From the NCBI GenBank assembly GCA_903889245.1, contig CAISWQ010000028.1:70677-134676 (forward strand): a stretch of DNA of 64,000 nucleotides. Reading direction: 5' to 3'. This DNA is from an uncultured Lentisphaerota bacterium. GTDB taxonomy: Bacteria > Verrucomicrobiota > Kiritimatiellia > CAIQIC01. Within the stretch, counting starts at the first letter, position 1, and each line of letters opens with the position of its first letter. Below the pieces are notes generated by a model that did no database searches, was not told the DNA's origin, and saw only the letters and a program-made list of their open reading frames with translations. Shown here in pieces: positions 2,891 to 61,028 of this stretch. The position numbers were made by a program, and so were the translations under genes.

Positions 2891-3049
2891 CCCCGCGTCC
2901 CAACCCGGACCGTTTTGCCCGCGCCCTCAGGTACGCAATAAACAATCACCTTTGGGGCAACACGCCGTGGAGACGCGACCCTAGGCCCCTGGTTCTCATC
3001 GCGGTACCCCGGACGGCGGACTCGCCCCACGCACGCCCGCCGTCCTTTT

Positions 3050-3092
3050 TCCGGGGCTTGGAAAATACAACGGGAAAATTTCCAAGGTTTGG
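3050..3092. repeat. TTCCAAG-n-CTTGGAA palindrome pair upstream of kinase 3226
   Basis: ggcttggaaaatac...aaaatttccaaggtttggaaaaa. Confidence 0.6.
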
Positions 3093-3225
3093 AAAAACAA
3101 GACCGGCACGGGCAGCCTGCGGGTTGAGGGTCGGGCGTAAAAAGGATAGCCAACCCCCAAGGGGGAAGATATTCTGCGCGCCAAGTTGGTCATGATGTAC
3201 GGTGACAGGTGAAGGGAGCGGCAGG

Positions 3226-6706: not shown

Positions 6707-9700
6707 ATGAAATCCTTTGAAGAAAGCCTGGGGAGCAGTCCAACGCTGACCGGCGCGCCGACCAAGGCCACCGCGACGCTGGAGGCTGACGCGGTGCTGG
6801 GCAGCTACCGGATCGTGCGGCTGCTCGGCGCGGGCGGGATGGGCGCGGTCTATCTGGCCGAGCACATCCAGTTCAAGACGCGGCACGCGCTCAAGACCAT
6901 CCGGCCGGAATTCGCCAAGCAGCAGAACTTCGCCGAGCGCTTCCAGCGCGAAGCCAAGCTGGCGACGCGGCTCAAGCATCCGCATATCGTCGCCTGCACG
7001 GAGACTGGTGTTGCGGAAGGCACACCCTATCTGGTGATGGACTATGTCGAAGGCCCGGCCGGCGAACCGCTGAACCTGCGCCAGTTGCTCGATCAGCGCC
7101 GCGAGCGCGGCGATCTGCTCGGCGAGGACGAGGCCGCCGCCGTCGGCTTGGAAATCTGCAAGGCGCTGGATTATGCCCACAGCTATCGCGACGCCGAGAT
7201 CCCCAACGGCATCATCCATCGCGACCTGAAGCCCGCCAACATCCTTCTCGATAAGGACACCAAGCTCTACATCGCCGACTTCGGTTTGGCGCGGATGCTC
7301 GGCGAGAAGTACGAGGAGAGCATCGTGCAGGCCCACTCGCTCTCGCTCGGAGAACAGGCGACGCTCGGCAAGCCGGTCTCGGTCAGCGCCGACACCGTCG
7401 GGACCTTTGACTACATGAGCCCGGAGCAGCGCGAGGGTCGCACCGCTGACGCGCGCAGCGATGTGTATGCGATGGGCGTGATTCTCTATGAACTGCTGAC
7501 CGGCCGCAAAGTGATCGGGGTTCCCAAACCGCCCAGCCAAGTGCGCCCCGGCCTGGACCCGATATGGGACGACATTATCCTGTCACGCTGTTTAGCCTAC
7601 GAGCCGGAGGAACGCTATGCCACGGCGGGCATGATGTGCCGCGCGATCGAGGGAGTCCGCTCCAAGTCGAACCTTGCGCAACAGACCGCCACCGGTTTCC
7701 AAGCCTTGGAAAAACCAGCGCCAACGTTTTCCAACCATGGGAAACCAATGGCCATTAAAGGTCTGGCCCTCGCCGCTGTTTTGGTCGGAGCGGGCTTGGC
7801 CGCGTGGTGGTTGAGGGAGCTGCTTCCGCAGACCTCCTCGCCGGTTACAAACGCGGTTCAGGCCGCAGCGCTCCTGCCGCCCGCGCCGACGACGAACCCG
7901 GTTGTGACATCAACAGTTAAAACACCGGCTACGGCCCCCGCGCCTGCGGTGAAGATGGAATTTGCAGCTATCTCCATTACCTGTTCGGAACCCGCGCGCA
8001 TTCTGCCCTTGGAGGTTGGCCAACCGACGGTATACGATTTACCACACCACAAACTGCAAGTCGTGAGCCCGGGATTGTCCGGCTGTCAGCTTCTGGCAGT
8101 TCCACTCCAAAAGGTCATCACCTTTGAGATACGCGTAAACCAAGACGGGGTTCTCTATGTCATTGGGAGTGGTAAGAAATCGCTGCGTTCCCTCGGCAAC
8201 GAAGAAAGCGCAAAGTGGGAGGATGCTACCGGCATGATTAGCGGTGCGGCGGTCAACCTCTGCCTCCGTCGCAAGGCTGTCCGCGGCGAAATTATCCAGT
8301 TGCAAGGGACCGATCTGCGTTTTGTGGCCAAAAGCATCGAGGTTGTGTCTGACGAGAAACCGGAATCCCTCACGAAGCCAGCTGCGCCGTCACCCGCAGT
8401 CGTGCCGCAGCCCGCTGTGCAACCCGGCCAACAATGGACCAACAGCCTCGGCATGGTTTTCGTGCCGGTGCCGGGGACGAAGGTGCAGTTCTCAATCTGG
8501 GATACGCGCGTTCAGGACTACCAAGCCTTCGTCACCGCCACGGGCCGCACGTGGGAAAAACCTAACTTCGGGCAAGGTCCGATGCACCCGGCAGTCAACG
8601 TCAGTTGGGATGATGCCAAGGCTTTCTGTGCATGGCTAACGGAGAAAGAGCGACGCTCTGGCACGTTGGTCGCTCCCCGGCGATACCGTTTACCGACGGA
8701 TCTTGAGTGGAGTGTTGCTGTAGGTTTGGGGAACGAATCCGGGGCCACACCACAAGAGAGGGATGGCAAAATCCGCGGCGTTTACCCGTGGGGTACGCAA
8801 TGGCCTCCACCATCTAGCGCTGGCAACTTTTTTGTGAAGAAATCCAAGGCTGGCAAGGTTGATGACTTCTATAATACCAGCCCTGTGGATAGCTTCGCTG
8901 CCAACCGCTTCGGTCTCTATGATATGGGTGGGAATGTCTGGCAGTGGTGCGAGGATTTCTATGATGGGCAGAACGGTGCGCGTGTGTTGCGTGGCGGGGC
9001 ATGGAAGAGTTTAGGTGGCGGCGGAAATGAACCCGACCTTTTCTTGTCTTCTCGTCGCACCCACTCGCCCCCCATGAAGGGCAACAGCTATCGTGGGTTT
9101 CGTTGTGTGCTGGCAGATGAGGGGATGACTGCGTCGCAAACTCCGTCAGGCGCAACCAACACGGTGGTCAGTTTGCCAGCGCCAACACCCGCTGTAGTTT
9201 CATCGCCCTCCATTGTGCAGTCCGGCCAGCGATGGACCAATAGCCTTGGCATGGTCTTCGTGCCGGTGCCGGGGACGAAGGTACTGTTTAGTATCTGGGA
9301 GACGCGTATGAGGGACTACGCCGCCTATGCGCGTGCAAACCACAACGTGGATAATAATTGGCAACAGGCCTCGTACTATGGGGTGAAGGTAAGCGATGGT
9401 CCCGAGTATCCAGTTAGCGACGTTAGCTGGGCTCATGCAAAAGTGTTTTGTCTGTGGTTGAGAGAGAAGGAACAGAAGGAGGGCGTGCTTGGGCCTAATC
9501 AAAAATATCGCTTGCCGACCGATTTGGAATGGAGCACAGCGGTTGGTTTGGAAGTTGAAGTAGGGCGCACTCCAAGGGAGCGCCATAGGCGCACCGGCAA
9601 TGAATACCCATGGGGCACGCAATGGCCACCGCCACGAAGTGTCGGTAACTACGCGGATCAAACCGCCAAGGTCGGACTGTTGTATCCAAGCGACAAGTCT

Positions 9701-10173: not shown

Positions 10174-11983
10174 CATGAATAACGTGGACGACGAAGGCTC
10201 AACCATCATCAAGCCGTTGAGCAAGAAACCGCGCGAGGTCCTGGAGGCCGGCGCGCACCTGGGCCAATATCACATCATCCGCCTGCTTGGCCGCGGGGGC
10301 ATGGGCGAGGTCTATGAGGCCGAGCACACCACGCTCGGTCTGCGCTTTGCCCTCAAGCTACTGCCGCCGGAGATGCTGGCGACGACCACCGCGCTGGAAC
10401 GCTTCCGGCGCGAGGCGCGCGTGATGGCGCAACTGCGGCATCCGCACATCCTGCACGTGGATGAATTCGGCGAGACCGAGGGCCGTTTCTGGTTCCGCAT
10501 GGAACTGGCCAACGGCGCGACGCTGGGCGGCAGGCATATCGTCACGCTGGCGGAACTGGCCGAGGTCTCCGGCGGGCGGATCGAGCAGCGGGTGTTGCTG
10601 GGTATCTTGCAGCAATTGCTGGCCGGTCTGGCCCACGCCCACGCCAAGGGTGTGGTGCATCGCGACCTCAAGCCCTCCAACGTCCTGATCTGCACCGACG
10701 CCGAGGGTAGTGTGTTCAAGATCGCCGACTTCGGGCTCGTGCGCCTTGTCGGCATGGACTGGCTGCAATCGCGCGTGGAGAACTCGGTGCGCCTCACTGG
10801 GCAGATGACGGATTCGCTGTCCGAGGGGCCGACCAAGGTCGGGGCGCTCGGCGAGGGTTCCTCGACCCGCTCGCTGCTGGGCACCTACGAATATATGAGC
10901 CCGGAGCAGAAGCGCGGCGAGGAGGTGGACGCGCGCAGCGACATTTATTCCTTCGGCCTGATGATCTTCCGCCTGCTGACCGGCGACCGCGAGTGGGACC
11001 TCGATGAGGTGCCCAGCCAGATGGTCGAGGGTCTGGTCCCGGCTTGGGACGAGCTGGTGAAGGCCACGCTGCGGACGCGCAAGGAAAAGCGCGCGGCGGA
11101 TTGCGCGGCGCTGCTGCCGCTGCTCGACGCCGTTTCCCAAGCCCTGGAAAACACCGGCGCTAAAATTCCCAAGCTTCGGAAAACGGAAGCGACCCAACCT
11201 GATTTGCGGGCGCCGTGGACCAACTCGCTGGGGATGGAATTCGTGCCGGTGCTTGGCACGCAGACGCTGTTCTGCAAGTGGATGACGCGCGTACAGGACT
11301 TCACGGCGTTCGTGAAAGCGACCGGCCACGACGCCACCGAGGCGATGCACTCCCTGCGCGCCGAGGGTTGGCAGCAGCTTGGCGCTTCCTGGGAGAGTCC
11401 CGGCTTTGAGCAAGGCCCGACGCATCCGGTCTGTGGCGTGAACTGGGACGACGCCCAGGCCTTCTGCCTCTGGCTGACCGAGCGGGAGCGGCAGGCCAAA
11501 CGCCTCAAGCCCGACCAAGCCTACCGCCTGCCCAAGGATTGGGAGTGGAGCGTCGCGGTCGGCCTGACGGAGCCGCGCGCGGGCACGCCCCGCGAGAAGA
11601 GCGAGAAAGTTCCCGGCGTTTATCCATGGGGCCGCCAGTGGCCGCCGCCGGCGGGCGCGGGCAACTTCGCGGGCGCGGAAGCGCAGGACGCGGACTGGCC
11701 CGCCAGCATGGAGGTGATCGCCGGCTATGACGATGGCTATCCGCGCACCGCGCCGGTGGGCAGCTTCGCCGCCAATCCGTTCGGCCTGTTCGACATGGCG
11801 GGCAACCTCTGGGAATGGTGCGAGGACTGGTCCGATGGCCAGAAGAAAACCCGCGTACTGCGGAGCGGCTCGTGGCTCAACTTTGCAGCCGTCCGGCTGC
11901 TCTCCTCCTTCCGCTTGAGTTTCCAGCAAGCCTACCGCGTCAGCTCGGTCGGCTTCCGCGTGGTGCTGGCCTCCGCGACGTGA
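10174..11983 (+). CDS. Ser/Thr protein kinase - one FGE-sulfatase-like domain
   Basis: Motifs GRGGMGEVY, ALKLL, HRDLKPSNVLI, DFGLVR and MSPEQKRG; C-terminal WTNSLGMEFVPV...YRLPKDWEWS...GNLWEWCEDW...RVLRSGSW. The start was chosen at MNNVDD because of the upstream GAGGGAA; the ORF is open from 10070. Confidence 0.85.
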
Positions 11984-12212: not shown

Positions 12213-12268
12213 CAGGCTTTCCAAGGCCCGGGAAAAAACGCCGGAATTTTTCCAAGGCTCGGACAACT
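12213..12268. repeat. Two degenerate TTTTCCAAGnCTTGGAAAA units upstream of kinase 12383
   Basis: ctttccaaggcccgggaaaaaa ... tttttccaaggctcggac. Confidence 0.6.
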
Positions 12269-22725: not shown

Positions 22726-22842
22726 TGTTCCTGCCTTCCTGCTTTCCTCATTCAGACAGGTAATCCAAGCCTTGGAAAATTGTTTACCGCCAAGACGCCG
22801 AGGACGCCAAGAACGGAGAAGGCGGACCTTGCATGGCAGAAA

Positions 22843-30504: not shown

Positions 30505-30630
30505 CCGTCCAAGCATTGGAAGCAGGCGGGGGCTGTTTTTCCAAGGGTTGGAAAAAATCAGCGCGGTTTTTCCAAGGCTTGGAACGGTAAAAAAGAAGGT
30601 TCCCAAGACGTGGAAAACCAAGGGTTTGGG
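30505..30630. repeat. Array of four to five TTTTCCAAGnCTTGGAAAA palindromes, centre-to-centre spacing 31-32 bp
   Basis: Palindrome centres at ~30514, 30546, 30577 and 30608. Confidence 0.8.
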
Positions 30631-30725: not shown

Positions 30726-31064
30726 ATGAGTCCAGAAAAAGAGTTCTTGTCGTTGGAAGAAACCGCCGACCTGCTGGGGGTCAACTACCAACTGATCTAC
30801 AAGCTGGTCCGGTCGGGCGAGCTGCCGTCGGCGCGGGTGGGCAAGGTCTATCGGGTGATCCGCCGGGACCTGGATGCCTACCTGGAAAAAAGCAAGAGCG
30901 CGGTCGGCGGCGGGACGTGCGCGGCGTGCGGCACGACCTATGGCAGCAAGGAGTCGCTGACGCAGGCGTGCAAGGAGTGCGGCGCGGCGATGTGCTTCGA
31001 CTGCTGGACGCGCCGGCGGCTCCGGTACTGCAAGGAGCATCAGGAGGCAGGGAAGAAGAAATGA
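30726..31064 (+). CDS. Excisionase/MerR-family HTH DNA-binding protein fused to a C-terminal zinc ribbon
   Basis: LSLEETADLLGVNYQLIYKLVRSGELPSARVGKVYRV is an excisionase-type HTH; the C-terminus is CAACG...CKECG...CFDCW..C. An AT-rich promoter region with TTGACA lies upstream. Confidence 0.75.
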   Translation: MSPEKEFLSLEETADLLGVNYQLIYKLVRSGELPSARVGKVYRVIRRDLDAYLEKSKSAVGGGTCAACGTTYGSKESLTQACKECGAAMCFDCWTRRRLRYCKEHQEAGKKK

Positions 31065-31202
31065 GGGACGAGGGTCGAGTGGCGAGGGTGGAAGCGAATT
31101 TATGATTTTGGATTTACGATTGATGATGGGTGGCAAGGGAATGTTTGAAGATACGAGACTGGAAACGGAGAAATAAACAGCGGCAACCGACAGGAGGAAG
31201 TT

Positions 31203-32798
31203 ATGGGTCTGTTCAGCAATAAATGCCCGAAGTGCGGATATGACGTGAGCAAGAAGGCGCGGATCTGCAGCCAGTGCGGCGCGCCGGCGCCGGGCGGCTG
31301 GTGGCGCTGCCCGAACCAGAAATGCAACCAGTGGATCGGCAACGAGTCGAACTTCTGCCCCTACTGCAAGACGCCGACGCATGTGGCGTCGCGCGAGTCG
31401 GTGGCGGGCGGCCGCTGGCAAAAGTCGCCGGACACGTTCGCGGAGCGCTTCGAGGTCAACGACATCAAGCGGCTCATCGAGCAGGGCCTGATCATCGAGC
31501 AGGGCACGGCGGCCATCTTGCTGGATGGCGGGGCGTTCAAGGACGTGCTCGGTCCGGGCACGCACAATCTCGACAGCCTCGCGCACAAGATCAACAACTG
31601 GGGCTCGCCGCCGCCGCGGACGGTGGTGCTGGTGGATGCGGGCGATGTGGTGCTGCCGCTGCACGTGGAGGGCCTGCGGTCGGCCGAGCAATATCCGCTG
31701 GAGCTGTTCGCCGAGATGCGGCTGCGCTTTGCCGAGAAGGGCGCGGCGATGTTCCTGGAGAACATGCTCAAGAACAAGCCGCGGTTCACCTATGAGGAAC
31801 TCGCGACGCAGATGAAGGGCGAGATCTGGTCGCTGGCGCAGGACTTCTGCACCAAGGCCACGGTGGCCGATTTGGTCAAGGACCCGGAGCGCCGGCTGCG
31901 GCTGGAAGACACGATGCAGAGGGAATTGCAGAAGGTGCTGGAGCGGTGCGGCCTCGAGATCATCCGCGTCGGCGCGGTGGAGTTCGTCGGCAAGGAATAT
32001 GAGGCGGAGCGCGCGCGGACCGGCGAGCTGGAACACAAGCGGCGGATGTTCGAGTTCGATCAGCGCCTGCGCGAGCTGGCGGCGTCGGACCGGATGGGGC
32101 AGCTCAAGACCGAGGACGAGCTGGCGACCTATGTCCGGCAGATGGCGCAGGAGCGGCAGATCAGCACGGCCAAGTGCGAGCAGGAAGTGGCGCTGCTCAA
32201 GATGGTGCAGAGCCAGGAGCTCGAAGCCAAGGATGTGGCCTTCCGGCTGCAGCAGCAGATGCAGCAGACCGCCCACGAGATCAACCTCAAGGTCAAGTGG
32301 GATGACTACAGCTTCGACAAGCTGGTGAAGGAAGCGCGGGCGCAAGCGGAGGCGCGCCGGATCGCGTTCGGGCAGGAAACGGCCGAGGTGGATCAGGCCC
32401 TGAAGTGGCGCGAGACGAAAAACCGCGAGAACGAGCGCAACCTGCGCGAGCGGCGCGAGGCCCTGCGCGGCGCCAGCCTGCTGGAGTTGATCGCGCTCGA
32501 GGATGACCCCGAGAAGCGCAAGGCGCTGCTGGCCCTGAACGAGCAGGAGGCGCGGCGTGGCCTGACGCCCGACCAGATCCTGGCGCTGGCGGCCGAGAAG
32601 TCGCCGGCGATTGCCGAGGCGCTGGCGCGGCAGATGGGCCGCAGCCAGGAGGAGATCCGCAAGGCGCAGGAGGAGGCCGCGCGGGCTCAACGGGAGAGCG
32701 CCGAGCGTTCCGAGCGGATGGGCAAGGAAGGCCTGGAGGCCGCCAAGGAGATCGGCAAACACATCACGCCGACGAGCAACCAGCAGATCATCAAATAG
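31203..32798 (+). CDS. Double zinc ribbon - SPFH/band-7 (flotillin-like) domain - long coiled coil
   Basis: N-terminus has CPKCG...CSQCG and CPNQKC...CPYC. IIEQGTAAILLDGGAFKDVLGPGTHNL and ...GLEIIRVGAVEF fit SPFH topology, and a charged coiled coil follows. Confidence 0.65.
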   Translation: MGLFSNKCPKCGYDVSKKARICSQCGAPAPGGWWRCPNQKCNQWIGNESNFCPYCKTPTHVASRESVAGGRWQKSPDTFAERFEVNDIKRLIEQGLIIEQGTAAILLDGGAFKDVLGPGTHNLDSLAHKINNWGSPPPRTVVLVDAGDVVLPLHVEGLRSAEQYPLELFAEMRLRFAEKGAAMFLENMLKNKPRFTYEELATQMKGEIWSLAQDFCTKATVADLVKDPERRLRLEDTMQRELQKVLERCGLEIIRVGAVEFVGKEYEAERARTGELEHKRRMFEFDQRLRELAASDRMGQLKTEDELATYVRQMAQERQISTAKCEQEVALLKMVQSQELEAKDVAFRLQQQMQQTAHEINLKVKWDDYSFDKLVKEARAQAEARRIAFGQETAEVDQALKWRETKNRENERNLRERREALRGASLLELIALEDDPEKRKALLALNEQEARRGLTPDQILALAAEKSPAIAEALARQMGRSQEEIRKAQEEAARAQRESAERSERMGKEGLEAAKEIGKHITPTSNQQIIK

Positions 32799-32828
32799 GA
32801 AGCAGCCGAAACGAGAGCGGGGGATGGT

Positions 32829-34457
32829 ATGCCTGATGGCGCAATATGGTTCGAGTGTCCGAACGCGGCCTGCAAATATAAGTTGAACCGGGCTGAAGTA
32901 GCGAAGCTGTGCCCGCAATGCGGGACAGATTTGACGGCGCTGCTGGCGGCGCTGGATGCGGGCGCGCCCGTCGAGTCGGCGGGCGTGCCACAGCCTCCGC
33001 CGCCACCCCCACCCCAGCCGGAGCGCGCGCCGCCTCCGGCGGGGCAGGAGGCGAAGCCCGTAGTTCGCGAGGGGCCAGCGGGCAGCTTCACCATACCCAC
33101 CATCCCCACCCCGGCGACACCTGTCCCCGTTACGGAGCGCGATGCGCCCGCCACGGTGGAGTCGCGGCCGCCCCCGATACCGGCCACGCTACGGGTGGAA
33201 AATCCACGGGCCGCGGCGGGCGCCGCCAGTGATCATGGCTGCGCCGAGCTGCTGGTGGAATATAACAACGCGCTGATCTTCATCGTGGGCTGCAAGCTGA
33301 ATTTTGAATTCCAGGTGACGCCGCAGGTCGAGGGTATCTCCAACGTGCGGATCGAGATCAAGGACGCCGACAAGCAGGCGGTGATCGCGACCCAGCATCT
33401 GGACCACCGCCTGGAGATGGGGCAGCGCGAAAAGTTGCCGATGGCCTTCCGGCCGGACGCGCAGCACGAAGGCGAGATGAATTGCGACATCACACTCTCC
33501 TTCGCCTGGCAAGGCTCGCGGCACGTTTATCGCGCGCGCCGGAAGACGCACTTTGTACTTCGCGCCACTGAATCAGCCGACAAGGTGCTCGACACCTTGA
33601 ACATCACCCTGAACCAGAATCTGGACAAGGCGCATGCCAATGATATCCGTGTGTACATGGATGACGTGATGGGGAAGCTGCCCCAGCGCAGCCAGTATCG
33701 GATCAACTTCGAGCAGGTCAAACTGCCGCCGCAGTGGGAGCCGTTGCGCTTGACGGCGCTCGCGCCGCGGCCGACGGCGGCGCGCGCGCTGACACTGTGC
33801 TTCCCGATGCAGCGCATCCACCTGCTGCCCGATTCCCAGGTCCGGGTGGGGCGCAGCCGGGAGAACGAACTGGTGGCACGGATACCGACCGGGAGCCGGG
33901 AAGACAATCAGCGCATCCACAATTTCCACTGCCAGATTTTGCGGGTGGAGAACGAGGTGTTCATCAAGGATGGCGGCGCCTATCCCGAGGGTTTCCGCGC
34001 CAGCTCCAACGGTACGTTTGTCAATGGCGAGCAGCTTGCGCCGGAGGGTGAGTGCAAGGTGCAGCCCAACAAGACGGTCGTGCTGTCCTTGAGCGATCAG
34101 AACTCCGACGACCGGCGCATCTTCGCCCTGAAGATGCGGCTGTGGCGGCGGATGGATATCCAGGAGGGGATCAGCCCGGCCTGCGGCAAGGGCGCGCCCG
34201 AGGACCTCGTGGCGTTGACCATGCAGGCACTGCGCGATCCGCAGCACTGGTTTGTGTTGCTGTGGCGGCAGTTCCCCCTGGAGAAGATTTGCGGGCGTGA
34301 TTATAGCGGGCTTTGCCTGTGCAAAGAGCCGCTGGGCTTCCTGGTGCAACACGCGGGGCTTTGCGATCCGCTGGAGCCCGGCCGCGAGTTGGAGATCGGT
34401 GGGCAGATCATCCAGGTCGCGCGCTATGAGAAGCCGTGGGTTTCAACTGTGCGGTAG
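32829..34457 (+). CDS. Zinc ribbon - Pro-rich linker - FHA-domain protein
   Basis: N-terminus has CPNAACKY...CPQCG. The FHA core is GRSRENELVARIP...HNFHCQILRVENEVFIKDGGAYPEGFRASSNGTFVNGEQL. FHA binds phospho-Thr, which is consistent with partnering the neighbouring kinases. Confidence 0.75.
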   Translation: MPDGAIWFECPNAACKYKLNRAEVAKLCPQCGTDLTALLAALDAGAPVESAGVPQPPPPPPPQPERAPPPAGQEAKPVVREGPAGSFTIPTIPTPATPVPVTERDAPATVESRPPPIPATLRVENPRAAAGAASDHGCAELLVEYNNALIFIVGCKLNFEFQVTPQVEGISNVRIEIKDADKQAVIATQHLDHRLEMGQREKLPMAFRPDAQHEGEMNCDITLSFAWQGSRHVYRARRKTHFVLRATESADKVLDTLNITLNQNLDKAHANDIRVYMDDVMGKLPQRSQYRINFEQVKLPPQWEPLRLTALAPRPTAARALTLCFPMQRIHLLPDSQVRVGRSRENELVARIPTGSREDNQRIHNFHCQILRVENEVFIKDGGAYPEGFRASSNGTFVNGEQLAPEGECKVQPNKTVVLSLSDQNSDDRRIFALKMRLWRRMDIQEGISPACGKGAPEDLVALTMQALRDPQHWFVLLWRQFPLEKICGRDYSGLCLCKEPLGFLVQHAGLCDPLEPGRELEIGGQIIQVARYEKPWVSTVR

Positions 34458-34484
34458 GAAAAAATCAAACAGCAGGAGGCAGTC

Positions 34485-35252
34485 ATGCAAAAGCAGATGA
34501 AGGGATATGTTGGACTGATGGCCATCGCCGCCCTGGCGTGGCTCAACACGGGCTGCGCGACGCGGCTGGGCGTAGGCGCGCCCGCCACGCCGGCGACCCA
34601 GGATCACGTCGCGGCGCAACAGGACAACCAACTGTTGAACGTGATGGTGAAGTGCTCCACCACGAGCCAGAACGCGGCCGCCGTGGTCGCCGGCCGGGTA
34701 CGCGACGCCGTCGAGGGCGCGCTGGCGCCGAGCGTGAAGATCAACCCGCAGATGACCGACATCCTCGTGGACCTACAGGTCAACGCCACACTCTTCGACA
34801 AGTCCGGCGACTTCAGCCTCTATCGCGGCGAGGTACAGGCGGTGGTCACGCGCATGTTCGATGGCAAGGTGCTGGGCCGAAATACGTGGGTGGAAAAAGG
34901 CGCCCGGCAACTCGGCGATGCCGAGGCCTGCCGCGCCGTAGCCGATGTGCTCGCCAAGCAGGCCGCGCCGTGGGTGGCCAGGACCATCGAGCCGGCGTCG
35001 CAAGGGCTGGCTGCGGCCGACGTGCGGCTGGCCGCGCCGTTCTACCGGCGCACGCAGACGCAGGCCGCCTATGCCGCCCAGTTCGTGGAGACGGTCAAGA
35101 AGCTCGATGGCATCGTCTCCTGCGTGCTGGTGCAGCAGGACCTGGCCGCCAACCAGATGACGTTCCGGGTGGTCTACTTCAAGGAGAAGTTCCCGGAGGG
35201 TCTGTTGAACCGGCTGACCCTGCAGCAGGACTTGGATCTCAAACCGCGGTAA
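34485..35252 (+). CDS. Lipoprotein (signal peptide with lipobox LNTGC)
   Basis: MQKQMKGYVGLMAIAALAWLNTGC. No recognisable catalytic motifs. Confidence 0.7.
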   Translation: MQKQMKGYVGLMAIAALAWLNTGCATRLGVGAPATPATQDHVAAQQDNQLLNVMVKCSTTSQNAAAVVAGRVRDAVEGALAPSVKINPQMTDILVDLQVNATLFDKSGDFSLYRGEVQAVVTRMFDGKVLGRNTWVEKGARQLGDAEACRAVADVLAKQAAPWVARTIEPASQGLAAADVRLAAPFYRRTQTQAAYAAQFVETVKKLDGIVSCVLVQQDLAANQMTFRVVYFKEKFPEGLLNRLTLQQDLDLKPR

Positions 35253-35275
35253 AAAAGAAACCAAAGGAGCTGACC

Positions 35276-36364
35276 ATGAAACGCATGATGTGGCTGATGA
35301 TTCTCGCGGCGGGCCTGTTGGCCTCCCGTAGCCCGGCGGCCTTCAACGATGACGTGCGCCAGGCATTCCAAGGCGCGGTGGCCGATGCCCAACAGGACTT
35401 GAAAGGCAGCGGCTTGCCGGCCGGCGAGCCGATCGCGCTGCTGCCGATTGCCGGCGACCAGGGCGACTACGTCTATGGCCTGCTGAAGAACGCCGTCACG
35501 GCGGCGGGCCTGACCTGCGTGGAAGGCAAGAGCGACCCGTTCTGGAACGAGGTCATGGAGGAGGTCAAATTCGACACGCTGAAGGGCGACATCCTCGACG
35601 CCAAGACGCTCGTCGCCTTCGGCAAGCTGAAGGCTACCCGCATCCTGCTCTATGGCACGGTGCGCGACTTCTCCGCGGAAGGCTCGAAGGTGTACGTCGA
35701 GCTGGAGCTGCACGCCAGCTCCGTGGCGACCAAGCAACACCTCTGGGGCCGCTGCTTCGGCAAACGCCATTACTTGGCCAAGGATGTCGTGGGCCTGATC
35801 CAGTTGGACGACAAGGTCAAGGAAGTGCTGGCCAAGGCCTTCGACCGCGGCACCGAGTCGCTCAAGGCTGCGCCCAAGGTCAAGAACGTCCGCACCGTGG
35901 CCATGGTGCCGCTGGCGGGTGACATTGACCGCTATGCCAGCGGCCTGGCCGAGGCCATGGTGAGCAAGACTGCCGCGCTCTTCCCGAAGAACCTCGACAT
36001 CAAGACGCTGGCCGAGGCGCGCTCCCTCCTGCGCGACCAGCCACAGCAGGCCGACGCCGTCCTCTACGGCGCCGTCCGCGACCTCTCCCGCAAGCAGGAG
36101 ACGCCCGGCATCTTCTCCAATACCGACCGCCTGCAGGCGGTGATCCAGGTGAAGATCGAGAGCGCCAAGGATCACGAAGTGCTGTGGAGCGAGCAGCTCT
36201 ACGTCTCGGAACTCTATCAGCAGACCATCCCGACCGAATCCAAGGTCATCATGATCTGGCAGTGGCTGCGCGCGCATCCCCTCGTGCCGCTCGGCATCCT
36301 CGGCGGCATCATCATCCTGATCGTGTTGCGGATGCTGATCAAGGCCGGTACCCGCGTGCGGTGA
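35276..36364 (+). CDS. Secreted protein with tandem-duplicated internal domain and C-terminal TM anchor
   Basis: Signal peptide MKRMMWLMILAAGLLASRSPAA and C-terminal ILGGIIILIVLRMLIK. The internal repeat is ALLPIAGDQGDYVYGLLKN...LYGTVRDF versus AMVPLAGDIDRYASGLAEA...LYGAVRDL. The six-frame ORF 34436..36364 is a read-through artefact. Confidence 0.7.
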   Translation: MKRMMWLMILAAGLLASRSPAAFNDDVRQAFQGAVADAQQDLKGSGLPAGEPIALLPIAGDQGDYVYGLLKNAVTAAGLTCVEGKSDPFWNEVMEEVKFDTLKGDILDAKTLVAFGKLKATRILLYGTVRDFSAEGSKVYVELELHASSVATKQHLWGRCFGKRHYLAKDVVGLIQLDDKVKEVLAKAFDRGTESLKAAPKVKNVRTVAMVPLAGDIDRYASGLAEAMVSKTAALFPKNLDIKTLAEARSLLRDQPQQADAVLYGAVRDLSRKQETPGIFSNTDRLQAVIQVKIESAKDHEVLWSEQLYVSELYQQTIPTESKVIMIWQWLRAHPLVPLGILGGIIILIVLRMLIKAGTRVR

Positions 36365-36381
36365 AGCACGGAGGTGTTGTC

Positions 36382-36771
36382 ATGAAGAACAAGAAAATCA
36401 TCATCGGGGCCGTCATCGCCCTGCTGGCGGTGGCCGGCCTCGGCTGGCTGCACAGCCACTACGTCATCCATACCGACCGCGGCTACATCGTCATCCACAA
36501 ACAGTATCTCTCGTTCAGCGACTCGTGGGTGGACGCCCGCGCGTGGGGTACGACGGACTTCAACCAGCGCCCCCTGCTCAAGGAGGCCATGGTCCAGCAA
36601 GGCTACGGCGACTACCTCGCCGACCTACGCTGGCAAGAGTGGCGTCAAACGGCGGCGAACGCCCGCGACAGCGTCCGCGCCTGGTGGCAGCGGCAGGTAC
36701 AGGGCGTTCAGAACTTTTGGACGCGTCTGACCGCCTGCCACCACGACCGGGAAAAGCAACCGCAGACATAA
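36382..36771 (+). CDS. Small N-terminally anchored membrane protein
   Basis: MKNKKIIIGAVIALLAVAGLGWL, then a soluble Trp-rich domain. It is the last gene of the co-oriented block. Confidence 0.55.
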   Translation: MKNKKIIIGAVIALLAVAGLGWLHSHYVIHTDRGYIVIHKQYLSFSDSWVDARAWGTTDFNQRPLLKEAMVQQGYGDYLADLRWQEWRQTAANARDSVRAWWQRQVQGVQNFWTRLTACHHDREKQPQT

Positions 36772-36939: not shown

Positions 36940-37058
36940 ACAGGTTTTCCAAGCATTGGAAACTTTCAGGTCCGGTTTTCCAGGGATTGGAAAATCTCAC
37001 GGAAATTTTTCCGAGCCTTGGAAAAAAGCGCCGGATTTTTTCCAAGCCTCGGAAAAGA
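36940..37058. repeat. Array of four TTTTCCAAGnCTTGGAAAA palindromes, spacing 31 bp
   Basis: Palindrome centres at ~36954, 36985, 37016 and 37047. Confidence 0.85.
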
Positions 37059-37084: not shown

Positions 37085-37185
37085 GATGGTGGACAGAAAA
37101 ATGGGAGACAGAAAAAGCAGAGGACGCGACGGAGCGCGTCCCTCCACGCGCGTCTTTGGGAGGGCCACGCTCCGTCGTGGCCGCG
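37085..37185. repeat. MITE-like repeat copy (short form: module + hairpin A 37122..37141 + hairpin B 37163..37182)
   Basis: Sequence identity; a further solo hairpin B lies at 36894..36913. Confidence 0.8.
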
Positions 37186-37254: not shown

Positions 37255-40143
37255 ATGAAACCAAGTGACGAAAGTCTGGGCAGCAGTCCAACGCTGACGG
37301 GCAAGCGCGACCATGCCGCGGTTGAGGCGCTGGCGGCAGGCACGGTGCTGGGTAACTATCGCATCGTGCGCTTCCTCGGCGCAGGCGGAATGGGCGCGGT
37401 CTATGTGGCCGAACACATCCACCTGAAGACCCGTCACGCCCTCAAGACGATTCGCCCCGAGTTCGCCCGACGGCCGGGCTTCGAGGAGCGCTTCCTGCGC
37501 GAGGCGCGGTTGACGGCGCACCTCAAGCATCCGCATATCGTGCCTTGCTCCGACGCCGGAGTGGCCAACGGCACGCCTTATCTGGTGATGGACTACATCG
37601 AGGGCCCGGCCGGCGAGCCGCTGAACCTGCGCCAGTTGCTCGATCAGCGCCGCGAGCGCGGCGAGCTGCTCGACGAAGACGAGGCCGTGGCCGTCGGCTT
37701 GGAAATCTGCAAGGCGCTGGACTATGCCCACAGCTTCCGCGACGCCGAGATTCCCCACGGCATCATCCATCGCGACCTGAAGCCGGGCAACATCCTCCTC
37801 GACAAAGACACCAAGCTCTACATCGCCGACTTCGGGCTGGCGCGGCTGGTGGGCGAGAAGTTCGAGGAGAACGTGGTGCAGGCGCATGCGCTCTCGCGTT
37901 CGCTGGGCGAGGAGCCCACGCTGCGCGGCGGTACATCCTCGACCAGTTCCGATGCGGTCGGCACCTTCGACTACATGAGCCCGGAGCAGCGCGAAGGCCG
38001 CACCGCCGACGCGCGCAGCGATGTCTATGCGCTCGGCGCGATCCTCTATGAACTGTTGACGGGGCGTAAAGTGGTGGGCGCGCCCGCGCCGCCCAGCCGG
38101 GTGCGACTTGGCTTGAATCCCGTGTGGGACGACATCATTCTTGGTAGATGCCTCGCCTACGAACCAAATGACCGCTACCCCACCGCCGGCGAACTCGCCC
38201 GCGCCATTGAGCGCACCTGTTTCCAACCCTTGGAAAAACCGCCCCAGGCGCGCTCCCCCTCGGCTTCGCTCGGGGCAGGCAATCCTTGGGAAACCGGTAA
38301 GAAAGCGAAAATAATCGGGGCCATCGCTGCCGGCATCGCAGGTGTGCTGGTTGTGGGGAGCATGGTGAAGTGGCTTGCCAGCTCCGAACAAAAGCCAGTT
38401 CCGCCTGAACAGAAGTTGGCGAAGGAAGTGACAACAAACACATCCGCAAGCGTAGGGACACCACAATCCAAGCCGTTTGCGGACATTTTGGATAGCCCGA
38501 CGCACCCGCCCACAGTCATGGTGATGCCGTCACCCGCCAAAGAGAAGACGCCGGAGAGAAAAACCCCGCCTGTTCACCCCTCTTTGGATATGCCTTTCGA
38601 GAACAGCTTGGGCATGCAGTTTGTGCCTGTTACCGGGACGAAGGTGCTGTTTTGTAAATGGGAGACGCGGGTGCAGGACTTCGAAGCGTTTGTGAAGGCG
38701 ACTGGCTATGACGCGACCGAGGACATGTATTCACTTCGCAATGCTGTTTTTGAGAGACACGGAGACATGTGGAAAACCCCGGGCTTTGACCAAAGTCCGC
38801 TGCATCCTGTCTGTGGGGTTAATTGGGATGATGCGCAAGCATTTTGCAATTGGTTGACAGAAAAGGAAAGGAACGATGGAAGAATTCTATCGAACCAAAT
38901 CTATCGGTTACCGACAGATTTGGAATGGAGTGCAGCGGTGGGGTTACCTTCTGAAAACGGGGCCTCTCCAAAATATAGGAATGGGATGATTAAAGATGTG
39001 TATCCATGGGGTGATACATGGCCGCCGCCACACGGAGCCGGAAATCTAGCGGGAGAAGAATTGCGTGGCAATGATTGGTTTCCAGACCTTGGATTGATCG
39101 CGGGTTATAATGATGGATATCAACGAACCGCACCGGTAGGTAGTTTCAAAGCTAATCAATATGGATTGTTCGATATGTCGGGCAACTTGTGGGAGTGGTG
39201 CGAGGATTGGCTTGATGATGGGCAGACGAATCGGGTCTTACGCGGCGGTTCTGCGCTCGTTAATACCCCCAAGTTTCTCATGTCATCATTCCGCTATGAT
39301 ATAGGTCAGCCCCAGTTCCGGATTGCCGAAATAGGTTTCCGGGTGGTGTTGGGGCTGTCCTTCCAAGCTGAAGTTGACTTGGCCCAAACCAAACCTGTAA
39401 CTACCCGTTTTATAGTTGAGCGTACAGTTGGCGAAGTGTTCACGGTGGATTTGGGCGGCGGTGTGAAGATGGAGTTCGCCTGGATTCCGCCGGGCGAATT
39501 CCTGATGGGCAGCCTAGGAAGTGAAACCAGTCGGAGCGATGATGAGACACAACATCGCGTGACACTTAGCAAAGGCTTCTGGATGGGAAAGACGGAGGTG
39601 ACGCAAGCGCAATGGGAACGAGTGATGGGCAGCAATCCCTCTTATTTCAAAGGTGCCAACCTGCCGGTGGAGACCGTGAGGTGGAACGACTGCCAGGAGT
39701 TTATTGGGAAGATAAATGTGAAATGTGAAATAGGAAATTGGAAAGCGAGTCTGCCGACGGAGGCGCAATGGGAATATGCCTGCCGGGCGGGGACAAAGAC
39801 GCGTTTCAACACGGGCGACACAGAGGCCGACTTGACGCGCGCGGGTTGGTATGGCAGCAACAGTGACCATAAAACACACTCGGTGGGCGAGAAGGAGGCG
39901 AACACATGGGGCTTGTTGGATATGCACGGAAATGTCTGGGAATGGTGCCAAGACTGGTTCGGGAAGTATGAGAGTGGCATGGCGCGCGATCCCACCGGGC
40001 CAAGTTCTGGGTCGAACCGGGTTTTGCGGGGCGGTTCGTGGTACTGCAGTTCCGGGTACTGCCGGTCAGCGTACCGCTACAGGTTCGAGCCCGGCGATCG
40101 GGACAACGACATCGGCCTGCGGGTGGTGTTGCTGCCGCGCTGA
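37255..40143 (+). CDS. Ser/Thr protein kinase - TM - two FGE-sulfatase domains; the C-terminal unit retains the FGE catalytic Cys pair
   Basis: Kinase motifs are present. The C-terminal RVLRGGSWYCSSGYCRSAYRYRF matches the FGE active-site C-x4-C...YRYR signature (human FGE CHRSYCYRYR). Confidence 0.9.
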   Translation: MKPSDESLGSSPTLTGKRDHAAVEALAAGTVLGNYRIVRFLGAGGMGAVYVAEHIHLKTRHALKTIRPEFARRPGFEERFLREARLTAHLKHPHIVPCSDAGVANGTPYLVMDYIEGPAGEPLNLRQLLDQRRERGELLDEDEAVAVGLEICKALDYAHSFRDAEIPHGIIHRDLKPGNILLDKDTKLYIADFGLARLVGEKFEENVVQAHALSRSLGEEPTLRGGTSSTSSDAVGTFDYMSPEQREGRTADARSDVYALGAILYELLTGRKVVGAPAPPSRVRLGLNPVWDDIILGRCLAYEPNDRYPTAGELARAIERTCFQPLEKPPQARSPSASLGAGNPWETGKKAKIIGAIAAGIAGVLVVGSMVKWLASSEQKPVPPEQKLAKEVTTNTSASVGTPQSKPFADILDSPTHPPTVMVMPSPAKEKTPERKTPPVHPSLDMPFENSLGMQFVPVTGTKVLFCKWETRVQDFEAFVKATGYDATEDMYSLRNAVFERHGDMWKTPGFDQSPLHPVCGVNWDDAQAFCNWLTEKERNDGRILSNQIYRLPTDLEWSAAVGLPSENGASPKYRNGMIKDVYPWGDTWPPPHGAGNLAGEELRGNDWFPDLGLIAGYNDGYQRTAPVGSFKANQYGLFDMSGNLWEWCEDWLDDGQTNRVLRGGSALVNTPKFLMSSFRYDIGQPQFRIAEIGFRVVLGLSFQAEVDLAQTKPVTTRFIVERTVGEVFTVDLGGGVKMEFAWIPPGEFLMGSLGSETSRSDDETQHRVTLSKGFWMGKTEVTQAQWERVMGSNPSYFKGANLPVETVRWNDCQEFIGKINVKCEIGNWKASLPTEAQWEYACRAGTKTRFNTGDTEADLTRAGWYGSNSDHKTHSVGEKEANTWGLLDMHGNVWEWCQDWFGKYESGMARDPTGPSSGSNRVLRGGSWYCSSGYCRSAYRYRFEPGDRDNDIGLRVVLLPR

Positions 40144-40384: not shown

Positions 40385-40464
40385 GCTTTCCGTCCTTGGC
40401 GCGCTTGGCGTCTTGGCGGTTGTCCTTCGGTCGGGAACGATAGGAATGCAATGGTGGCGCCATG
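40385..40464 (+). promoter_or_regulatory. Conserved kinase 5' leader copy (GGTGGCGCCATG start-codon palindrome)
   Basis: See 12300..12385; cgataggaatgcaatggtggcgccatgaaaccatttgag. Confidence 0.6.
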
Positions 40465-43275
40465 AAACCATTTGAGGACAGCCTGGGCAGCAGCCCGACG
40501 CTGACGGGCGCGCTGGCCAAAGCCACCGCGACGCTGGTGGCAGGCACGGTGCTGGGCAATTACCGGATTGTGCGGCTGCTGGGCGCGGGCGGGATGGGCG
40601 CGGTCTATCTGGCCGAGCACATCCAGCTCCAGACGCGGCACGCGCTCAAGACCATCCGGCCGGAGTTTGCCAAGCAGCAGAATTTCGCCGAGCGCTTCCA
40701 GCGCGAGGCCAAGCTGGCGACGCGGCTCAAGCATCCGCACATCGTCGCCTGCACGGAGACCGGCGTCGCCAATGGCACGCCCTATCTGGTGATGGATTAC
40801 ATCGAAGGTCCGGCCGGCGAGCCGTTGAACCTGCGCCAGTTGCTCGACCAGCGTCGCGAGCGTGGTGAACTGCTCGACGAGGACGAGGCCGCCGCCGTCG
40901 GCTTGGAAATCTGCAAAGCGCTGGACTATGCCCACAGCTACCGCGACGCCGAGATCCCCAATGGCATCATCCACCGCGACCTGAAGCCCGCCAACATCCT
41001 GCTCGACAAGGACACGAAGCTCTACATCGCCGACTTCGGGCTGGCCCGCTTGCTCGGCGAGAAATTCGAGGAGAGCGTGCAGGCCTATGCGCTCTCCAAG
41101 TCGCTGGGCGAACAGGCGACGCTCGGCAAGCAGGTCTCGGTCAGCGCCGACACGGTCGGCACCTTCGACTACATGAGCCCGGAGCAGCGCGAAGGCCGCA
41201 CCGCCGACGCGCGCAGTGACGTCTTCGCAATGGGCGTGATCCTCTACGAACTGCTGACCGGGCGCAAAGTGGTGGGCGTGCCTGCACCTCCTGGCGTGGT
41301 ACGGCCGGGGCTCTCCTCGAAGTGGGAAGAGATAATACTGGAGCGGGCGCTCGCCTATGAACCCGGTGAGCGTTTTGCCACGGCCGGAGATTTCTGCCGC
41401 GCCATCGAGGGCGTCCCGCTCAAGCCGGTGGCAACACCTCCACCGCTGGAGGCAAAACCAGTCCCTCCACCGCCCCCTCAACCGCCAGCACCAAAGCAGG
41501 AGGAACCCGTCGCCCCGCCCCCACCTCCCGAAACACCTCCGCAACCCGATTCAGAACAGGCCCAGGAGTCTGTTGTTGAAAAATTCGGGGAACCAGACCC
41601 GCGGACCACAGCCAAAGTCATGGCTGTTATTACTGTTTTGGTGGTCGCTGGCCTGGCATGGGTGATATCAAAGTGGCCATCTTCACCCACCGGCGCACAG
41701 CCAAACTGGGCAACGAGAATGGCCACATCATCTATTCCGGTAAGCGTGAACACCCCGACGCCGCAACCATTGGTAACAAATCCCGTGATCGCGCCACCTG
41801 TGACGTCAACTGCGCCCGACTTGGAGAGTCTGCGGCGCGGTTTGGTCTTGTACTTCAGCTTCGACAACATCCAAGGGGATCAGGTTCTTGACGACAGCGG
41901 CCTCGGCAGCCACGGCACCCGCAAGAGTACTACCGTGACATCCGGCATCGCCGGAAGCGCCCTTGACTTCTTCAACGATGACGCCGTCGTCACGGTTCCC
42001 AATCACCCTTCGCTGAACCTGGAGAAAGCTTTGACTCTGTCTGCATGGGTTCGGGGCGGGCCCAATCAATCAAAGGGTTATCCGCGTATCATTGATAAAT
42101 TCATCTGGACGGGTCAACAAGGTTACGCGTTGAAGATCTTGACCGAGAGCGGCAGAGGTAGATTGGCTCTGTTCCCAACGGGTGACCAGTCCTACCGGGT
42201 CTTTAACGCGGATAGCCTGAACGAGGCCCTACTGGACGACCAGTGGCGCCATCTCACCGGTACATTCGATGGCTCGGAACTTCGATGCTATGTAGACGGT
42301 GTTTTAAGCGGAACGACCTACTGTGAGAGTCAGATTGTGACCGCCGACAAGGAATTGACTATCGGGAATGGCTTTGATGGTGCTGCATGGCTTCCATTCA
42401 AGGGTTCGATTGACGAGGTGGCCATCTTCAACCGCGCGCTTTCGGGCGATGAGGTTAAGCAGCTTCATGACCTCGGCAAGCGCGGACAGAGCTTGAGCAA
42501 GCCGGGCGCGCCGCCGACCCGTGATCCGGCTACCTCATTACAACCGGCTGTGCCGTCATCACCGGCGGTTACGATGCCGCCGGAAATTCAGGACTTGTTC
42601 ACACCGGCCGTTACATCTTTACCGGCAGATGAGCGACTAACCCGCGTCCTGGCCAAAATGAGGGAATTAAATCCTGCGTTCCGAGGCAACGTTAAATCCA
42701 ATCAAGTTAAATCCGGGTTGAAGAAAATAGCGTTTGAGAAGGGCGCGGTCATCACCAACCTTTGGCCCTTGCGTTCCTTGGCGGCCACCCTGACGGAACT
42801 ACACTGCCGAAGCAAAAGCCTCGAAGACCTCACGCCACTCAAGGGTATGCAGCTGACTCACTTGGATTGCGCCGATAGTCAGGTAAGCGATCTCTCCCCT
42901 CTGCGGAGTATGAAGAGCCTGCGTACCATCAATTGTTGCGGCACACGCATCCATGATCTGTCTCCACTGGAGGGGTTACCCTTGCGATGGCTGGGGATGA
43001 ACGGGACCAGGGTTGCTGATCTCACTCCGCTTACTGGGATGCCATTGGAATTTCTTGGGTTCCCTCGAACGGCAGTTACCGATTTGTCTGTGCTGAAAAC
43101 TCTGCCCAAGCTGCGCAAAGTGAAGTGTGACTTCAAGGCTGATCGCGATGCAGGCATCCTGCGCTCAATCAAGACGCTGGAAGAAATCAACGGTATGCCA
43201 GTCAAGGAGTTCTGGACGCATGTTAATGCCGGTGAATCGCCACAGGCCAAACCAGATGAAGATGATAGAATCTAA
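40462..43275 (+). CDS. Ser/Thr protein kinase - TM - LamG/concanavalin-like domain - C-terminal leucine-rich repeats
   Basis: The kinase head is near-identical to 6707 and 12383. The LamG-like block is LVLYFSFDN...ALTLSAWVRGG...LTIGNGFDG. LRR units LxxLxxLxxLxL occur in LTELHCRSKSLEDLTPLKGMQLTHLDCADSQVSDLSPL.... Confidence 0.85.
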   Translation: MKPFEDSLGSSPTLTGALAKATATLVAGTVLGNYRIVRLLGAGGMGAVYLAEHIQLQTRHALKTIRPEFAKQQNFAERFQREAKLATRLKHPHIVACTETGVANGTPYLVMDYIEGPAGEPLNLRQLLDQRRERGELLDEDEAAAVGLEICKALDYAHSYRDAEIPNGIIHRDLKPANILLDKDTKLYIADFGLARLLGEKFEESVQAYALSKSLGEQATLGKQVSVSADTVGTFDYMSPEQREGRTADARSDVFAMGVILYELLTGRKVVGVPAPPGVVRPGLSSKWEEIILERALAYEPGERFATAGDFCRAIEGVPLKPVATPPPLEAKPVPPPPPQPPAPKQEEPVAPPPPPETPPQPDSEQAQESVVEKFGEPDPRTTAKVMAVITVLVVAGLAWVISKWPSSPTGAQPNWATRMATSSIPVSVNTPTPQPLVTNPVIAPPVTSTAPDLESLRRGLVLYFSFDNIQGDQVLDDSGLGSHGTRKSTTVTSGIAGSALDFFNDDAVVTVPNHPSLNLEKALTLSAWVRGGPNQSKGYPRIIDKFIWTGQQGYALKILTESGRGRLALFPTGDQSYRVFNADSLNEALLDDQWRHLTGTFDGSELRCYVDGVLSGTTYCESQIVTADKELTIGNGFDGAAWLPFKGSIDEVAIFNRALSGDEVKQLHDLGKRGQSLSKPGAPPTRDPATSLQPAVPSSPAVTMPPEIQDLFTPAVTSLPADERLTRVLAKMRELNPAFRGNVKSNQVKSGLKKIAFEKGAVITNLWPLRSLAATLTELHCRSKSLEDLTPLKGMQLTHLDCADSQVSDLSPLRSMKSLRTINCCGTRIHDLSPLEGLPLRWLGMNGTRVADLTPLTGMPLEFLGFPRTAVTDLSVLKTLPKLRKVKCDFKADRDAGILRSIKTLEEINGMPVKEFWTHVNAGESPQAKPDEDDRI

Positions 43276-44211: not shown

Positions 44212-44261
44212 CACATGGAGAGCTTGAAACCAAACTCCATCCCAGACAGGAGCTATGCAAC

Positions 44262-46624: not shown

Positions 46625-46742
46625 AAGTTTCCAAGGGTTGGAAAGTGGAACCCATGCATTTTCCAAGCATTGGAAAATTTTGCGTCGTTCGTTCCAAGCC
46701 CTGGAAAATTCTCCGCCGTTTTTTCCAAACCTCGGAAAACTG
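46625..46742. repeat. Array of four TTTTCCAAGnCTTGGAAAA palindromes, spacing ~31 bp
   Basis: Palindrome centres at ~46636, 46668, 46699.5 and 46730. Confidence 0.8.
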
Positions 46743-60939: not shown

Positions 60940-61028
60940 AACACCGCTGTTTCCAAACCTTGGAAAAAATTCCGTGAGATTTTCCAATGCCTGGATAAAC
61001 CGATGGGGTCCGTTTCCAATCCTTGGGA
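60940..61028. repeat. Array of three TTTCCAAnCnTTGGAAA-type palindromes between convergent genes
   Basis: gtttccaaaccttggaaaaaa / ttttccaatgcctggataaa / gtttccaatccttgggaaaca. Confidence 0.7.

Follow-up and report, generated by a model that had tools for sequence, protein, structure and literature searches.

A 19-bp palindrome phased at three helical turns looks like a genome-wide protein recognition signal in Kiritimatiellia-like PVC bacteria

Introduction

Several described systems resemble, in one respect or another, the palindrome analyzed here. Pairs of NrdR boxes are spaced 31–32 bp. Dimers of the Lrp type read 13–17-bp inverted repeats placed two or three turns apart on one face of the DNA (PMC2995911), REPs are found mostly between unidirectional and convergent genes, just after the coding regions (PMC3733652), and the USS/DUS copies of coding regions fall on poorly conserved residues (PMC2817400). 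HIP1 (GCGATCGC), a lineage-wide, hyper-abundant palindrome of cyanobacteria, occurs in both coding and non-coding DNA with evidence of selection, its function being unsettled (PMC5861425, PMC4390886). REP, USS/DUS, HIP1 and Chi have in common that each of these iterated motifs revealed a genome-wide machinery.

Here we describe a palindrome iterated in a 64-kb stretch of DNA (hereafter the window), whose sequence was not found in the literature searched. It has the appearance of a protein recognition signal that serves the whole genome, of a kind not described before, and not of a local gene switch.

Results

The palindrome and its arrays in the window

Allowing up to 2 mismatches, a search of the window found the 15-mer 23 times (0.15 expected; none of 100 shuffles reached 23), and allowing up to 3, 31 times (1.96 expected). 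The palindrome occupies 11 loci of 1–4 units each, one array per 5.8 kb, and in every multi-copy array the centers are spaced 31–32 bp, as a first-pass annotation of the window had reported:

3049..3094, two units (starts 3049, 3080), 108 bp upstream of the kinase gene 3202–5709
7697..7743, two units (starts 7697, 7729), inside the kinase gene 6707–9994, exactly at the end of the kinase domain; the unit at 7697 reads TTC CAA GCC TTG GAA (FQALE)
11135..11181, two degenerate units (starts 11135, 11167), inside the kinase gene 10070–11983, between the kinase and FGE-sulfatase domains (SQALEN)
12219..12264, two degenerate units (starts 12219, 12250), upstream of the Sel1-repeat kinase gene 12383–15673 and preceded by a GGCCACGCTCCGTCGTGGCC hairpin at 12157
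22763..22777, single unit, upstream of the kinase gene 23065–26802, in the same composite module as the array at 36947 (hairpin, palindrome, GGACA motif, hairpin)
30507..30615, four units (starts 30507, 30539, 30570, 30601), in the divergent region that separates the kinase gene 28790–30262 (−) from the HTH_17 operon (30726, +); a conserved sigma-70-like promoter (TTGACA 30661–30666, TAAATA 30684–30689) follows about 45 bp downstream
36947..37054, four units (starts 36947, 36978, 37009, 37040), TTCCAAGnCTTGGAA with 1–2 mismatches each at an exact 31-bp period, with T-runs and A-runs beside the units; the array is preceded by the operon that ends at 36771 and followed by the Ser/Thr kinase gene 37255–40143
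38221..38235, single unit, inside the kinase gene 37255–40143, at the end of the kinase domain (FQPLEK)
46629..46737, four units (starts 46629, 46661, 46692, 46723), between the convergent genes 44208–46451 (+) and 46856–47113 (−)
60951..61028, three units (starts 60951, 60982, 61014), between the convergent genes 58318–60930 (+) and 61034–63340 (−), filling the whole 103-bp gap between two stop codons
63374..63420, two perfect units (starts 63374, 63406), between the co-directional minus-strand genes 61034–63340 and 63448–63999

The eight loci named in the first-pass annotation all proved real, but the 2–5 copies given for them did not hold, since the window arrays have 1–4 units; five-unit arrays do occur in metagenome contigs. 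The remaining three loci (7697, 11135 and 38221) had been missed because they lie inside kinase ORFs; all three sit exactly where the conserved kinase domain ends.

A logo of 245 units gave the consensus tTTTCCAAG[G/C]CTTGGAAAa, a perfect 19-bp dyad with 8–9-bp arms and about 29 bits per unit, with A/T tracts about one helical turn from the dyad. Positions beyond the 19-mer carry less than 0.2 bit each, which excludes a longer conserved repeat around the motif, a possibility that the first-pass annotation had named as its own refutation. The center base is either G or C, with no orientation rule and independently of spacing and of transcription direction. Constraint is weakest at the three central base pairs, where mismatches concentrate; the "loop" bases G7 and C9 are 86–92% conserved and the loop length is constant, TTCCAA-N3-TTGGAA occurring 398 times in 802 kb and its N0–2 and N4–7 variants not once. 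Neighboring units are 31 or 32 bp apart in 269 of 276 pairs (mean about 31.7 bp, three turns), whatever the spacer sequence. No tetranucleotide of the GTAG or CGTC type is conserved beside the core in the 245 units, only the T-run and the A-run, and all six reading frames of the palindrome are free of stop codons.

Two extended pairing schemes were rejected. Left and right flanks show no complementarity beyond the A/T runs, which excludes a 31-bp palindrome with diverged outer arms, and the center bases of neighboring units are complementary no more often than by chance (GG+CC 56 vs. GC+CG 44), which excludes pairing between units. In agreement with the first-pass annotation, the units are not intrinsic terminators either: on both strands the hairpin has U4 before it and A4 after it, with no U-tract. 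A terminator scan was not enriched (6 found vs. 6.9 in shuffles), and no Rfam family matched the palindrome, the sole Rfam match of the window being a tRNA gene at 57195–57266 (+).

Genes and other repeats of the window

Eleven Ser/Thr kinase genes lie in the window:

3202–5709
6707–9994
10070–11983
12383–15673
15729–20282
20344–22578
23065–26802
28790–30262 (−)
37255–40143
40462–43275
44208–46451

Over the kinase domain seven of them are 77–91% identical at the nucleotide level; past it the similarity stops abruptly and the C-terminal modules differ (FGE-sulfatase domains, 14 Sel1 repeats, LamG plus LRR, a DnaJ-type zinc finger). By this arrangement the kinases look like a cassette family with shuffled sensor domains. 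In the contig L074 a diversity-generating retroelement (bAvd plus reverse transcriptase, 20355–21662) directly follows an FGE-sulfatase kinase gene, for which reason the FGE-sulfatase sensor domains may be candidate targets of such elements.

The operon at 30726–36771, which encodes an HTH_17 protein, an SPFH/Band_7 protein with a zinc ribbon, an FHA protein and three unknown proteins, is conserved in contigs L073, L074 and L077. In L074 it runs on into a Snf7 (ESCRT-III-like) gene; in the window a Snf7-like gene and an AAA ATPase gene (47460–48584 (−), 50193–50819 (−)) are found about 11–14 kb downstream of the operon, on the opposite strand. The 870-aa product of the gene at 58318–60930 (+) contains a middle domain of hydrazine synthase alpha (PF18582, E = 2e-18), together with a weak cytochrome c motif, in a bacterium outside the anammox organisms.

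A second repeat family, GGCCACGCTCCGTCGTGGCC (7-bp stem, 6-nt loop), is present in eight perfect copies of the same orientation, against 0.01 expected:

12157 (+), 20 nt
22702 (+), 20 nt
22959 (+), 20 nt
28564 (+), 20 nt
30423 (+), 20 nt
36894 (+), 20 nt
37163 (+), 20 nt
40359 (+), 20 nt

Most copies are located in the 5′ regions of kinase genes, adjoining palindrome arrays, and, as GGCCACGCTCCGTCGTGGCC contains CGTC, it may be a REP of the CGTC type. A third repeat, GGACAGAAAAATGGGAGACAGAAAAAG, occurs at 22849–22875, 30271–30297 and 37091–37117; on the minus strand the last copy comes just after a different hairpin (37121–37142), as a terminator-like hairpin with a T-tail. GGACAGAAAAATGGGAGACAGAAAAAG and the GGCCACGCTCCGTCGTGGCC hairpin make up a segment of about 170 bp (window ~30268–30440) that is missing at the orthologous place in L073 and therefore looks like an insertion in the window. 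The window arrays upstream of kinase genes lie in a duplicated 5′ module that carries two other repeats.

Occurrence in other genomes

When one genome per species was scanned for pairs of perfect units 21–51 bp apart, at least 70 loci were returned. Among the matches listed, two are chance matches in Prevotella and the others belong to MAGs labeled Lentisphaerae, Verrucomicrobia, Kiritimatiellae or Kiritimatiellales, with 58–74% G+C. In the 68 listed loci, from about nine MAGs, the neighbor distances are 31 bp (38 times), 32 bp (84 times) or other (7 times), so that 122 of 129 agree with the window, and the peak near 31 bp that the first-pass annotation had made its decisive check is found in the other genomes among the matches listed. 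In metagenomes, a search for three perfect units in a row found 41 loci, chiefly from bog-lake hypolimnion, with arrays of up to five units and distances of 31 bp (37) and 32 bp (110) and nothing else (147/147). A ceiling of four units, as for a disc of four dimers, was considered, since none of the listed genome loci exceeds four, but was dropped in view of seven five-unit metagenome arrays.

Chance matches apart, the motif is restricted to one lineage among the matches listed. The proteins of the window, which is a metagenome scaffold, resemble MAG proteins of Kiritimatiellia, Verrucomicrobia and Lentisphaerae, and L074 and L077, whose orthologous operon is about 50% identical, have neither a copy of the motif nor any other iterated palindrome in 21 kb, by which motif variants in relatives were rejected. 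The exact palindrome pair is absent from 2.9 million viral contigs, and a viral origin was rejected on this ground; nine single 17-mers in these contigs are at about chance level by an uncomputed estimate. Carriers differ more than 20-fold in array density, from about one per 4 kb in SCQF01 to less than one per 37–96 kb in two other genomes (1 per 4 kb to <1 per 96 kb), and array positions are kept between close genomes and turned over between distant ones.

Palindromes are kept while spacers drift

The contig L073, whose SPFH protein is 91% identical to that of the window, has four-unit arrays at both orthologous places:

L073 10640–10748, ortholog of the window array at 36947
L073 4438–4545, ortholog of the window array at 30507

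Aligned in register, the cores are identical at 103 of 120 positions (86%) and the inner spacers at 21 of 60 (35%, near random), whereas the sigma-70-like promoter of the HTH operon (30639–30689; an A-rich tract, TTGACA at 30661–30666, 17 nt and TAAATA at 30684–30689) is about 98% identical in L073 next to randomized array spacers. Palindromes and phase are therefore maintained while the spacers drift, and in this alignment selection appears to act on the palindrome and not on the spacers.

Spacers are nonetheless not wholly random, since the flanks form three weak classes. Arrays share spacer 9-mers above shuffles (23 vs. 9.4 and 66 vs. 9.6), the first spacer of the array at 60951 is the reverse complement of the 36978 spacer at 15 of 16 bases, and four-unit arrays are often dyad-symmetric (P-X-P-Y-P-X′-P). 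From the shared 9-mers and this layout it follows that some arrays are copies of an element. In L120, two near-identical four-unit arrays with identical flanks (4541–4651 and 5025–5135) lie 484 bp apart, a local duplication that carried the array.

Pairs inside conserved genes

Arrays were also found inside ThiD, HisC, MurC, NamZ and PabBC. True in-gene pairs were confirmed by Pfam and PDB alignments, many "coding" calls being over-extended ORFs. The ThiD pair encodes KTFQGLEVYG and PNVPELGKLLGPDFQALEN, both ungapped against solved ThiD structures (32-bp spacing), the HisC pair encodes VFQGLEFFERELPRLGIE, ungapped against a solved homolog (31-bp spacing), and the MurC pair lies in an interdomain segment that differs by four residues from a motif-free ortholog (32-bp spacing). 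In these three genes the spacer is native coding sequence and the 31/32-bp distance is still held. Since the spacers are native, the distance is kept and indels are absent or of four residues, the pairs must have been built in place by substitution; what is selected or driven must be the reading of two dyads set a constant distance apart. The NamZ arrays occupy the same position in two genomes that are only 45% identical, with two and four units, respectively. In-gene copies encode recurrent peptides, FQ(A/G)LE, P(R/S)LGK and SK(A/P)WK, at poorly conserved residues.

Because the motif has no stop codon, arrays silently extend ORF calls upstream or fuse neighbors, as in ORFs that run through arrays at L015 1186–2727, L064 793–2622 and L029 3113–5227. 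Automatic annotation of these MAGs is likely affected, and gene starts and "fusion" proteins there call for checking.

Arrays are not a regulon

Genes were called by a crude method based on GC3, which assigns 87.5% of the DNA to coding sequence; 81 of the 122 arrays nevertheless fall between genes. They occupy every one of the four intergenic orientation classes, roughly as DNA is available, with convergent gaps somewhat over-represented and divergent ones not, and many arrays start 2–20 nt past a stop codon and fill the whole gap (e.g., 60951–61028). The genes flanked by arrays on both sides are unrelated to one another (DnaJ-like, MurJ, O-antigen ligase, hybrid histidine kinases, an FGE-sulfatase protein); the nine examined are housekeeping or sensory genes, with no transposase among them. 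Given that all intergenic classes and gene interiors are used and that the neighbors are unrelated, the arrays are not a regulon. The promoter regions and convergent gaps in which the first-pass annotation had placed the palindromes are indeed both occupied, but membership of promoter regions does not define the set.

Clustering of small ORFs revealed no recurrent family downstream of the arrays, and an autoregulated binder encoded beside them was rejected. The HTH_17 protein next to the array at 30507 (30726–31064), which had been put forward as a candidate binder, is very unlikely to be the binder, because a relative without the motif in 21 kb has an ortholog of it (65% identity, HTH almost unchanged).

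Discussion

Dimer sites on duplex DNA

We tentatively favor, at a little short of an even chance, the reading in which a dimeric protein with a genome-wide role recognizes the arrays as modules and binds them cooperatively on duplex DNA. Each 19-bp palindrome would be the site for one dimer of a putative sequence-specific DNA-binding protein, and 2–5 dimers, three turns apart on the same face of the duplex, would be bound cooperatively. The module would be used chromosome-wide and not as an operator of neighboring genes, and would probably serve to structure the nucleoid, to form domain barriers or to mark DNA as "self". Upkeep might be due to purifying selection or to recognition-dependent drive, with a pressure that would be strong enough for point substitutions to build pairs inside conserved genes, and arrays would to some extent spread by duplication as well.

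The same-face geometry of cooperative dimers, already proposed in the first-pass annotation, fits the perfect dyad, the invariant gap between half-sites and the three-turn spacing of 31–32 bp. Reading on duplex DNA is favored by this phase and gap, by the conserved "loop" bases, by the lack of complementarity between units and by the number of compensatory symmetric changes, which does not exceed expectation (6 vs. 8.5 expected, 1 of them complementary). The protein reader on duplex DNA, its cooperative binding and its cellular role are inferred. The more than 20-fold spread in density is odd for an essential architectural system, and, to our knowledge, no nucleoid protein has a site of about 29 bits that recurs on the order of a thousand times.

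Possible, but to be held with more reserve, is the proposal of a "phased palindrome pair" code in Kiritimatiellia-like PVC bacteria, in which a lineage-specific protein would read at least two dyads three turns apart. If so, selection or drive on this code would suffice to change residues in conserved enzymes, and the code would be a system of a new kind, unlike REP, USS/DUS and HIP1, that structures the chromosome or serves self-recognition by biasing uptake or recombination. The long perfect dyad and the obligatory three-turn phase make the putative reader experimentally tractable, and it could be a first handle on the chromosome biology of Kiritimatiellota-like PVC bacteria, in which genetics is almost absent.

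Alternative explanations

The strongest competitor, which we nevertheless consider unlikely, is a REP/BIME-like interspersed palindrome that acts as a hairpin, either in the sense transcript (3′-end protection, processing or termination) or in single-stranded DNA, that would be multiplied by a putative hairpin-recognizing enzyme, such as a RAYT-like Y1 transposase, and whose 31–32-bp period would be the length of the element unit. The first-pass annotation had dismissed this class too quickly, as distribution, repeat mosaics, shared spacers and a sense-strand wobble bias are all REP-like. In degenerate units between co-directional genes, counted over the window, L001–L070, L073 and L089–L129, sense-strand arm transitions are A>G in 16 cases and T>C in 3 (p = 0.004; 6:0, 6:2 and 4:1 by subset; 19:7 and 26:12 with relaxed criteria), with no composition skew in the surrounding DNA. 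This is the pattern expected for a sense-strand hairpin of RNA or single-stranded DNA, not for duplex reading, and it is unexplained under a pure duplex-binding model; units inside ORFs, on the other hand, have no strand bias (5:5). Variation is focused on the three central bases, as in a triloop, yet G7 and C9 are conserved and the loop length never varies, and compensatory changes were not found, although the RNA fold of the array is more stable than that of shuffles (z = −3.4). The position of the arrays, chiefly between unidirectional or convergent genes and often 2–20 nt past stop codons, is that of REPs (PMC3733652), and mosaics with other repeats (GGCCACGCTCCGTCGTGGCC and GGACAGAAAAATGGG), spacers common to different arrays (as between 36978 and 60951 in the window) and the changed unit number at the NamZ site also agree with a multiplying element. 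Neither a GTAG nor a CGTC tag is present, however, and none of the nine array-bracketed genes is a transposase. The ThiD and HisC pairs are free of insertions and keep the 31/32-bp distance around native spacers, and in old orthologous copies the palindrome persists next to decayed spacers, as would not be the case for a purely selfish, immobile copy.

Improbable, in our view, is an uptake-signal-like or "self-recognition" motif, whose accumulation would be driven by a machinery preferring the phased pair, so that copies need no local function. Dense genomes do hold one array per 4–6 kb, enrichment peaks where constraint is lowest, in convergent gaps, positions are conserved in close genomes and turned over in distant ones, exact pairs number zero in the 2.9 million viral contigs, and in-gene copies sit at poorly conserved residues without indels, as described for USS/DUS (PMC2817400). 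Against it, competence is undocumented in these uncultured bacteria, the density varies more than 20-fold among carriers and the sense-strand wobble bias is left unaccounted for. Moreover, known uptake sequences are asymmetric 9–12-mers without phased pairing.

Conventional transcription-factor operators for the Ser/Thr kinase genes and the HTH-led operon, possibly bound by the HTH_17 protein, are very improbable and already contradicted by the distribution: 5 of the 11 window loci (3049, 12219, 22763, 36947 and 30507) do lie upstream of kinase genes or of this operon, with a spacing like that of phased operator pairs, but the arrays upstream of kinases are parts of duplicated 5′ modules, other arrays occupy convergent gaps, the interiors of ThiD, HisC, MurC, NamZ and PabBC and places beside unrelated genes, and the HTH_17 ortholog (65% identity, same HTH) is present with the whole operon in L074/L077, with no motif in 21 kb.

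Comparison with known systems

The reading as dimer sites on duplex DNA finds its closest geometric parallel in the sites of Lrp/AsnC- and NrdR-type regulators, which share the 15–19-bp dyads, the three-turn center spacing and arrays of two to several sites. Those sites, however, form small regulons and are promoter-bound and degenerate, whereas the palindromes described here are near-perfect, number hundreds to thousands, are indifferent to gene function and orientation and also occur in genes.

With REP/BIME elements the palindromes share short palindromic units in high copy number and in regular clusters, mosaics with other repeats and a mostly extragenic location downstream of unidirectional or convergent ORFs (81 of 122 arrays intergenic, a verified minority in genes). 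Against a stem-loop unit of 20–40 bp in many copies, 19 bp is at the lower edge of size; the copy number is 23 in 64 kb and in the hundreds over related loci. The unpaired GTAG/CGTC tag is lacking, and REP/BIME elements match neither the invariant center length, nor the strict 31/32-bp phase with unrelated spacers, nor the pairs created in situ inside conserved genes. MITEs have a conserved interior between terminal inverted repeats, which is not found here, spacers and flanks carrying less than 0.2 bit per position and forming weak classes only.

CRISPR arrays likewise alternate a palindromic repeat with variable spacers at a fixed period, but their repeats measure 21 bp or more and their spacers 26 bp or more, in long arrays accompanied by cas genes. 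Here the repeat is 19 bp and the spacer 12–13 bp, with at most five units, in hundreds of dispersed mini-arrays, some in ORFs, without a leader, and a Pfam scan of the window found no cas domains, which bears out the earlier view that this is not CRISPR.

USS of Pasteurellaceae and DUS of Neisseriaceae are similar in being lineage-specific and genome-wide, with copies in the hundreds to thousands both inside and outside coding regions, often right after genes, and with coding copies that entail no change in length and encode recurrent peptides; here, too, coding copies were accommodated by substitution (ThiD and HisC ungapped, MurC with a 4-aa difference). Unlike USS/DUS, the present motif is palindromic, occurs in phased pairs to fives, is much longer (about 29 bits per unit) and varies more than 20-fold in density. 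HIP1 is an 8-mer tied to methyltransferase sites with no fixed pair spacing, against 19 bp with an obligatory three-turn phase here. Overall, we place the motif with the highly iterated genomic motifs, among which its phased-pair architecture is unusually strict.
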